Part shown: positions 42,023-61,806 of the stretch, in pieces | Numbering within the stretch: the stretch's first letter is position 1 | Layout of the letters: every line of letters begins with the position of its first letter | Assembly: GCF_055900595.2 (NCBI RefSeq) | Contig: NZ_CM148325.1 | Length of the DNA stretch: 64,000 bases | Strand: one strand, 5' to 3' | Made by a program: the position numbers and the translations under genes | Notes under the pieces: model-generated | Told to the model about the DNA's origin: nothing | What the model saw: the letters and a program-made list of their open reading frames with translations, nothing else | Database searches by the model: none

Positions 42023-43264
<1,242 letters not shown>

Positions 43265-43288
43265 TTACACGTTAATTAGTTTCGAATT

Positions 43289-43314
43289 AAAAAGGGCGCT
43301 TCGGCGCCCTTTTT
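43289..43314 (+). terminator. rho-independent terminator after tufA
   Basis: AAAAAGGGCGC-ttcg-GCGCCCTTTTT. Confidence 0.85.
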
Positions 43315-43391
43315 GCTGCCCGTAATTTGAGCTCGAAATATTTAGTCGTAATTTCACTCGCTGAACTATGGCGCAAATTAAACTGTGCTAT

Positions 43392-43413
43392 TGTAATCAT
43401 AACCATTCTCATT
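43392..43413 (+). promoter_or_regulatory. putative Fur-box-like element upstream of bfd
   Basis: TGTAATCATAACCATTCTCATT, AT-rich hexamer repeats resembling GATAATGATAATCATTATC, 33 nt before the bfd start. Confidence 0.35.
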
Positions 43414-43446
43414 TACACTTTGCGCAGAATTTGAACGGGAGCAATC

Positions 43447-43641
43447 ATGTACGTTTGTTTGTGTAATGGTGTAAGTGACAAAAAAATTCGCCAGGCAGTC
43501 CGTCAGTTTCATCCGCAATCTTTCCAACAATTGCGTAAGTTTATTCCTGTGGGAAATCAATGCGGTAAGTGCATTCGCGCCGCGCGCGAAGTGATGCAGG
43601 ACGAGTTGATGCAGATGCCAGAATTTAAAGAGATTGCCTGA
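43447..43641 (+). CDS. bfd: bacterioferritin-associated ferredoxin
   Basis: 64-aa ORF with [2Fe-2S] cysteines (CLCNGVSD ... NQCGKC). Confidence 0.85.
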   Translation: MYVCLCNGVSDKKIRQAVRQFHPQSFQQLRKFIPVGNQCGKCIRAAREVMQDELMQMPEFKEIA

Positions 43642-43713
43642 AGCCCACGCTTATTTTTTGACATCCCGCTAGCCCCATCTACGCTCTAATAGTGGAAGCG
43701 GAGGGACTATAAA

Positions 43714-44190
43714 ATGAAAGGTGATGTTAAAATCATAAATTATCTCAATAAACTATTGGGAAATGAGCTTGTCGCAATCAATCAGTATTTTCTCCATGCC
43801 CGGATGTTTAAAAACTGGGGCCTGATGCGTCTCAATGACGTCGAATACCATGAATCTATTGATGAGATGAAACACGCTGATAAATATATCGAGCGTATTT
43901 TGTTTTTAGAAGGAATCCCTAACTTACAGGATTTAGGCAAACTGGGGATTGGTGAAGATGTCGAGGAGATGCTGCAATCCGACCTGCGATTAGAACTGGA
44001 AGGCGCGAAGGATCTCCGTGAGGCTATCGCGTATGCCGACAGCGTTCATGACTATGTTAGCCGTGATATGATGATCGAGATCCTTGCCGATGAAGAAGGT
44101 CATATTGACTGGCTCGAAACTGAGCTGGATCTCATCGGTAAAATCGGTTTACAAAATTACCTGCAATCACAAATAAAAGTTAAAGATTAA
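43714..44190 (+). CDS. bfr: bacterioferritin
   Basis: 158-aa ORF, N-term [31 protein letters not shown]. Confidence 0.95.
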
Positions 44191-44654
44191 CGGCCTGCCA
44201 GCAAACTATCCCAGCCTACAACGAAACCCGCAGCCGCCAGAAATGGCCCAAACGGCAGCGGGTTTTTTAATGACTCTTTTCCTCTCATGAGCAGACCAAT
44301 AACTACGGCTCCGCAAGCGAATGAGGCAGCAAGGAAAACCAGTCGTGGCAAGAAGGTCCATGTATGCCAGGCACCAAGGGCGGCGAGAAACTTCACATCA
44401 CCATAGCCTAATCCTTCTTTATGACGCAGTATGCGATACCCCCAGTAAATGACAGCGAATGTGCCGTAACCAATAATCGCCCCCCATAACGCATCGGCTA
44501 AACCGTCAGGATTACAAACCTGATAGAACAAAAGACCTGACCAGAGTAACGGGCACGTAAATCTGTCAGGTAACAAGCCATGCTTTGCATCCCAGAAAAA
44601 AAGTAGGGCTGATAAACAAGCGTACAAAATCAGAAAGGGAAGGGTAGCGTCCAT
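44187..44654 (-). CDS. short-form prepilin (leader) peptidase, A24 family, HopD-like
   Basis: 155-aa polytopic ORF with [14 protein letters not shown] (GxGD catalytic aspartate motif); stop codon shares 3 nt with the bfr stop. Confidence 0.7.
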
Positions 44655-60408: not shown

Positions 60409-61785
60409 TTACAAAAAGAAAGGACTTGGCTGGAAGAGTCTTTCGACGTCGGTAATAAACTTTTTATCTGTGAGGAACATAATTACATGATCGCCTTGCT
60501 CAATACGCAGATTGTCATTGGCAATCATCACATCATTGCCGCGTACTACAGCACCAATAATCGTTCCTGGCGGTAGCTTGATTTCGTCAATGACTCTGCC
60601 GACAACGCGTGAGGTGCTTTCATCACCGTGAGCAACGGCTTCAATAGCTTCTGCTACGCCGCGGCGCAATGAGGAAACACCAACAATATCTGCTTTTCGC
60701 ACATGGCTAAGCAACGCAGAGATGGTCGCTTGTTGCGGTGAAATTGCAATATCGATCACGCTCCCCTGAACCAGATCCACATAAGCGCGACGCTGGATCA
60801 ATACCATCACCTTTTTCGCGCCCATACGTTTGGCGAGCATGGCGGACATAATATTGGCCTCGTCATCGTTGGTGACGGCAATAAACAGATCAACTTGATC
60901 GATGTGCTCTTCAGCCAGCAGTTCCTGATCCGATGCATCACCAAAAAAGACGATCGTATTCTGCAGCTTTTCCGCCAGCTCGGCAGCGCGCTGTTGATTA
61001 CGCTCGATGAGTTTGACGCTGTAATCTTTTTCCAGACGACGCGCCAGCCCTGCACCGATATTACCGCCGCCAACCAGCATGATCCGCTTATACGGTTTTT
61101 CCAGACGTTGCAATTCACTCATCACCGCGCGGATGTGTTGCGAAGCGGCAATAAAGAACACTTCATCACCAGCTTCAACAATGGTCGAACCTTGCGGACG
61201 AATAGGGCGATCGTGGCGGAAAATGGCTGCCACACGAGTATCGATATGCGGCATATGTTCGCGCATGGTCGAAAGTGCATTACCAATCAGTGGGCCGCCA
61301 TAATAGGCTTTAACCACAGCCAGGCTGACTTTACCCTCAGCGAAGTTCACTACCTGCAGCGCGCCGGGATACTCAATCAGTCGGTAAATATTATCGATAA
61401 CCAGCTGCTCTGGTGCGATCAGATGATCAATCGGTACAGCATCTGAATGAAATAGCTTATCGGCATCGCGCACGTAGTCTGGTGAGCGGATACGAGCGAT
61501 GCGATTAGGGGTGTTGAAAAGTGAGTAGGCTACCTGGCAGGCAACCATATTGGTTTCATCTGAACTGGTTACAGCAACCAGCATATCGGCGTCGTCGGCA
61601 CCTGCCTCCCGCAATACGCGTGGATGAGAGCCATGCCCCTGCACGACTCGCAGGTCAAATTTATCCTGCAAGGTCCGCAGACGCTCACCGTTGGTATCGA
61701 CAACAGTAATATCGTTGTTCTCGCCAACCAGGTTTTCCGCCAGTGTGCCGCCAACCTGGCCGGCACCCAGAATGATAATTTTCAT
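60409..61785 (-). CDS. trkA: Trk potassium-uptake system NAD-binding protein
   Basis: 458-aa ORF with two Rossmann GxGxxG motifs ([16 protein letters not shown]). Confidence 0.95.
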
Positions 61786-61806
61786 CAGTCGCGACCCGTT
61801 ATCTCA

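Follow-up and report, generated by a model that had tools for sequence, protein, structure and literature searches.

The window, by which is meant the whole 64 kb stretch of DNA that was analysed, comes from E. coli, and between positions 43200 and 43800 it is 100% identical to strain 2013C-4282. The genes of the locus follow the order fusA, tufA, a 182-nt intergenic region, bfd, bfr, a convergent prepilin peptidase gene and rpsJ. The tufA terminator bounds the bfd regulatory region on its upstream side, and within that region lies a 22-mer that an earlier reading, made from the sequence only, had flagged as a Fur box. The features to which the text refers are the following, in positions of the window:

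43288-43315, plus strand: intrinsic terminator of tufA, with a 12-bp stem (AAAAAGGGCGC...), a UUCG loop and a T run; fold of -19 kcal/mol, z-score -3.1.

43389-43407, no strand assigned: weaker, overlapping Fur-like site, TATTGTAATCATAACCATT, 6 nt upstream of the core; 6.2 bits.

43391-43396, plus strand: predicted -35-like hexamer of bfd, TTGTAA, matching TTGACA at 4/6 positions and overlapping the left end of the Fur box.

43392-43413, no strand assigned: the flagged 22-mer, TGTAATCATAACCATTCTCATT.

43395-43413, no strand assigned: core Fur site, the best 19-mer, AATCATAACCATTCTCATT, with the palindromic register AATGAnAATnATTnTCATT; 19.97 bits.

43414-43419, plus strand: predicted -10-like hexamer of bfd, TACACT, 17 nt after the -35-like hexamer.

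43426, plus strand: predicted start of the bfd transcript, an A, 7 nt after the -10-like hexamer, giving a leader of 21 nt; the prediction follows from the hexamers.

43437-43441, plus strand: Shine-Dalgarno sequence of bfd as read from the sequence, GGGAG, 67-95% conserved, with G43437 the weakest position.

43447-43641, plus strand: bfd, an open reading frame for the 64-aa bacterioferritin-associated [2Fe-2S] ferredoxin (WP_000289090.1 in the 100%-identical strain).

43658-43685, plus strand: promoter-like element with a putative function for bfr, TTGACA (43658-43663), 16 nt, TACGCT (43680-43685).

43714-44190, plus strand: bfr, downstream of bfd, encoding the 158-aa bacterioferritin (open reading frame and annotation).

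Two observations concern the borders of this locus. The tufA hairpin at 43288-43315 is symmetric, is preceded by an A run and followed by a T run, and could therefore terminate transcription in both directions. At the other end, the prepilin peptidase open reading frame (155 aa, 44187-44654, minus strand), named hopD in Sakai, runs towards bfr, with a 4-nt overlap at the bfr stop codon. The K-12 gene gspO is longer (678 nt, enough for about 225 aa), and in this arrangement no other gsp-like gene is annotated between bfr and rpsJ.

The 22-mer lies where the sequence-only reading had placed it, and exactly 33 nt separate it from the ATG of bfd at 43447, in keeping with the distance of about 33 nt given there. 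Its Fur-like pattern is borne out both by the classical 19-bp Fur consensus, GATAATGATAATCATTATC, with which the register 43392-43410 agrees at 14/19 positions, and by a position weight matrix, discussed below. A second, overlapping consensus match (13/19) begins 6 nt further on, and in the whole window a match of at least 14/19 occurs at only three positions. The best-defined core, 43391/43395-43413, is shifted slightly from the start given in that reading. Its left half-site departs from the consensus in two places, with C for G at 43398 and C for T at 43403. The weaker site at 43389-43407 is displaced from the core by 6 nt, which fits the usual 6-nt clustering of Fur sites, clustered sites being spaced by 3 or 6 nt (PMC2189734).

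Scoring with a Fur matrix, the check that had been proposed, was carried out with a symmetric matrix of 19 columns derived from 16 footprinted or gel-shifted K-12 sites, bfd excluded, whose coordinates came from Chen et al. 2007 (PMC2189734, on NC_000913.2) and whose sequences were taken from NC_000913.3. The core scores 20.0 bits (19.97), which places it in the middle of the range of the validated E. coli sites, whose leave-one-out scores extend from 7.7 to 28.5 bits, and it ranks first in the window, ahead of a runner-up at 12.3 bits. At this score, 0.008 matches per 64 kb are expected by chance, or 2.4e-4 in the intergenic region (182 nt) if its own base composition is used, and when the whole window was simulated 100 times with a first-order Markov model, two runs reached the score. 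The likeness to a Fur box is genuine and far exceeds what chance would produce.

Two of the lesser matches fall in or at coding sequences. The runner-up, AATGATAATTTTCATCAGT, lies at 61771-61789, over the start codon of trkA (minus strand, MKIIIL...), and was probably shaped by coding sequence; in the portion of the pan-regulon dataset consulted (PMC10164565), an intragenic Fur peak is listed for trkA-rsmB-fmt-def in strain KO11FL. The fifth-best match in the window, AATCATAAATTATCTCAAT (7.6 bits, 43731-43749), is located 17 nt inside the bfr coding sequence.

Conservation across the Enterobacterales provides a second line of evidence. When one genome per species was scanned with the Bfr protein, 80 loci were recovered, with bfd upstream of bfr in 77, of which 76 were usable. 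Within 200 nt upstream of bfd, the median score of the best Fur match is 19.8 bits over these 76 species, 72 of which reach at least 12 bits; for control stretches of equal length the median is -2.4 bits when they are taken from bfd and 4.4 bits when they are taken from bfr. The position of the site is also maintained: its distance from the bfd ATG, measured from the end of the site, is 30-47 nt in 65/76 species, most commonly 33 nt as in the window, and it is found some 81-119 nt upstream of bfd in Xenorhabdus and Pectobacterium. When 66 upstream regions are aligned, 43391-43415 stands out as the sole conserved block of the intergenic region, and the mean information per column is 1.40 bits over 43389-43415 versus 0.20 over 43337-43388. 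Within the block the conserved columns read TTG, AAT, A, AA, ATT, CTCA and TTA, and those that are poorly conserved are 43394, 43398, 43400 and 43404; 43400 and 43404 are the two degenerate positions of the palindrome, 43398 is the weak G of the left half and 43394 falls outside the 19-mer core. Column conservation, in other words, tracks the Fur palindrome.

Binding itself has been studied by Fur ChIP-exo in nine E. coli strains (Gao et al. 2023; PMC10164565, Dataset 2), and these data, like the expression data considered below, come from strains other than the window's own. Comparison with published Fur ChIP data was the other check that had been proposed, and the bfd peaks of strains 042 and W, in which the 22-mer is identical, fall inside the box when mapped to the window, the former at 43401-43413 and the latter at 43392-43404 (PMC10164565). 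Published data, then, show Fur occupancy of this site in strains with an identical box. The literature was also searched for a footprint of the window-type box, and none was found. In Sakai the box carries one substitution, at a degenerate central position of the palindrome, and the Sakai ChIP-exo coordinates do not fit NC_002695.2, apparently because they refer to an older genome version; they were left out of the occupancy evidence. We assume that versions.1 and.2 of NC_002695 differ in length by about 128 nt, and a shift of that size would put the Sakai bfd peak on the box.

Expression studies lead to the same regulator. Deletion of fur raises bfd expression in 8/9 E. coli strains, by log2 2.3 to 7.3, and the strains concerned include 042, W and Sakai, which carry the window allele; the entry for bfd in MG1655 is 'N/A' in this pan-regulon study (PMC10164565), and other K-12 studies include bfd. 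In K-12, Fur represses a bfd promoter-lacZ fusion (PMC4676285), and bfd is up 5.9-fold in a Salmonella fur mutant (PMC3212961). At the level of the gene, published work has shown Fur-dependent repression of bfd in strains with either promoter allele. The 22 flagged bases are a real, strong and deeply conserved Fur binding site on the bfd promoter, and we hold with high confidence that they form the Fur operator of that promoter in E. coli with the tufA-bfd-bfr arrangement.

The same block harbors a candidate promoter for bfd, and its arrangement suggests how repression could operate. TTGTAA-N17-TACACT agrees with the promoter consensus at 8/12 positions, and its key positions are 88-100% conserved in the 66 species: T43391 and T43392 are invariant, G43393 is 95% conserved, and in the -10-like hexamer T43414, A43415 and T43419 reach 98%, 97% and 88%, with 65-81% for the middle positions. 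Around the predicted start, C43425 and A43426 are conserved in 73% and 77% of the species. A scan for sigma-70 consensus promoters and terminators over 43200-43800 made no call; as it missed both the evident tufA terminator and this sub-threshold promoter, its result was not taken as absence. A search of the literature found no start site for bfd, and PMC10219339 held nothing on this gene. We infer the positions of the -35, the -10 and the start, as well as the number of Fur dimers involved, from the sequence.

Under plentiful iron, Fe2+-loaded Fur dimers would occupy the palindromic core at 43395-43413, with a second dimer probably placed on the overlapping site 6 nt upstream. The box takes up the whole 17-nt predicted spacer, overlaps the -35-like hexamer (43391-43396) and adjoins the -10-like hexamer (43414-43419), so that bound Fur would bar RNA polymerase and leave bfd silent. 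When iron is scarce Fur would leave, bfd would be transcribed, and the Bfd ferredoxin would then aid the release of iron from bacterioferritin. The center of the box lies at approximately -22 relative to the predicted start, A43426, as is standard where a repressor acts by occluding the promoter, and occlusion is the likely mechanism of Fur repression at bfd.

One could ask whether the block is kept simply as the core bfd promoter for the sake of RNA polymerase, its likeness to a Fur site coming from AT-richness and iron control of bfd being indirect. Promoter hexamers would indeed account for the TTG at 43391-43393, which is invariant, and for the TA...T pattern at 43414-43419, and AT-rich regions score higher with AT-rich matrices, the chance per position rising 12-fold at the intergenic composition. 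That chance, however, is 8e-6 even at 70% A+T; moreover, conservation is not normally expected of a promoter spacer, whereas in this block it is highest in the spacer and matches the Fur palindrome column by column. With Fur ChIP-exo peaks located on the box in strains of identical sequence, a block maintained for the polymerase alone is very unlikely. It is even less likely that the box is bound mainly by another regulator of AT-rich sites, such as Zur, another member of the Fur family or a nucleoid protein, with Fur in a minor role: AT-rich operators can be shared, and this general point is all that speaks for such a regulator, while the 20-bit match is specifically to the Fur palindrome, and Fur-specific ChIP-exo and fur-deletion expression both agree with Fur. 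The bfd box also appears unlike the Zur palindrome, GAAATGTTATAWTATAACATTTC. An Rfam scan of the region gave sub-threshold matches only. The notion that conservation reflects a minus-strand small RNA has hardly any credibility and was rejected. The STnc130-like match on which it rests (RF02084, 43283-43415) is full-length but weak: with 22.6 bits (E = 0.2) it stays far below the gathering score of 55, and it is a chance match driven mostly by the terminator hairpin, which draws several unrelated small RNA models. The Salmonella STnc130 is assigned to an unrelated locus, beside dmsA, and the stretch 43337-43388, which such an RNA would span, shows no conservation.

A further feature of the ChIP-exo data deserves separate mention. 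In the portion of the dataset consulted, 042 and W have a second Fur peak, labelled 'bfr, intergenic', that maps inside bfd at about 43541-43554 (PMC10164565), roughly 141-149 nt downstream of the main peak. The same entries list a matching pair of peaks for Sakai (PMC10164565), so that the second peak occurs in 3/4 assayed window-allele strains (042, W and Sakai) and not, among these entries, in the W derivative KO11FL; the four K-12-type strains among them, W3110, BL21, Crooks and CFT073, have a single peak each (PMC10164565). No Fur-like motif was found at 43541-43554, where the best matrix score is -1.6 bits. The intragenic peak, if real, might be a Fur contact that needs no motif, is specific to the allele and adjusts read-through from bfd to bfr, an idea to which we give little chance.

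The question of how far Fur control extends beyond bfd calls for a distinction. Iron-dependent control had been proposed for bfd and bfr together; it holds firmly for bfd, and less firmly for bfr, which possesses a conserved promoter-like element of its own. In 59 of 76 species the distance from a TTGAC motif to the downstream bfr ATG is 55-58 nt, and in a sixtieth it is 63 nt; this conservation makes it very probable that bfr has its own promoter. The element is followed by a conserved leader, GTGGAAGCGGAGG. Moreover, bfr is a target of the Fur-controlled small RNA RyhB. The energy of the duplex between RyhB and the bfr leader is better than all but 2 of 500 shuffles, as computed by a method that ignores intramolecular structure and yields an unrealistically long duplex, and it gives a weak hint of pairing between the two. 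Differential expression of bfd from bfr has been noted in a review (PMC7762939). The box, in this arrangement, controls bfd, and any influence on bfr would come through read-through only.

The allele carried by the window is one of two. E. coli is dimorphic at bfd-bfr, the window-type promoter with tuf-bfd adjacency being present in 2254 of 5426 complete genomes (a 42%/58% split), and the other allele, that of K-12 (L001) and CFT073 (L006), having chiA between tufA and bfd and gspO after bfr. The two are about 77% identical in bfd-bfr DNA and 90% identical in Bfr protein. The window-type Bfr is 94-98% identical to those of Citrobacter, Phytobacter and Raoultella, from which the window-type allele looks ancestral.

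The repression of bfd by Fur is an established part of enterobacterial iron homeostasis, in which a shortage of iron leads to the synthesis of Bfd and Bfd mobilises bacterioferritin iron, and the identification of its operator here matters little beyond correct annotation: the Fur operator of bfd is an already documented member of the Fur regulon, encountered in this case in a non-K-12 allele. What is added are base-level operator coordinates for that allele, the conservation of the operator and of its putative -35/-10 register across the Enterobacterales, and the assignment of the box to bfd, with bfr endowed with a conserved promoter-like element of its own.

The closest known system is the bfd Fur site of K-12, which is the same in gene, in position relative to the start codon and in regulatory outcome. 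A cluster of three overlapping sites was predicted there by Chen et al. 2007, with 20.2 bits and at position -40 (PMC2189734). The K-12 allele has its box, AATAAGAACTATTTTCATT, at the same place, and the same 19-mer in L058 scores 22.9 bits by the matrix used here. The K-12 and window boxes differ at 4/19 positions; they share the right half-site, ATT.TTCATT in the former against ATTCTCATT (43405-43413) in the latter. The putative -35/-10 register is common to both, with TTGAAA...TATTTT in K-12 and TTGTAA...TACACT in the window, and the surroundings differ: in K-12, chiA separates tufA from bfd, and bfr is followed by the gsp cluster. The window box lies about 75 nt downstream of the tufA terminator. 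By contrast with K-12, the bfd sites of 042, W and Sakai (PMC10164565) share both the allele and the gene order of the window, and present no substantial difference from it. Among the strong Fur boxes, those of ryhB (AATAATAATCATTCTCATT), gpmA and fhuA display the 19-bp palindromic architecture seen in the bfd box and overlap the core promoter, as the bfd box is predicted to do; the right half-site of the bfd box is identical to those of ryhB and gpmA. The left half is weaker in the bfd box (AATCATAAC versus AATGATAAT), with 20 bits as compared with 26-28 bits. Finally, bfd differs from the classical Fur-box genes in its physiological role, as it serves the release of iron from storage rather than its uptake.
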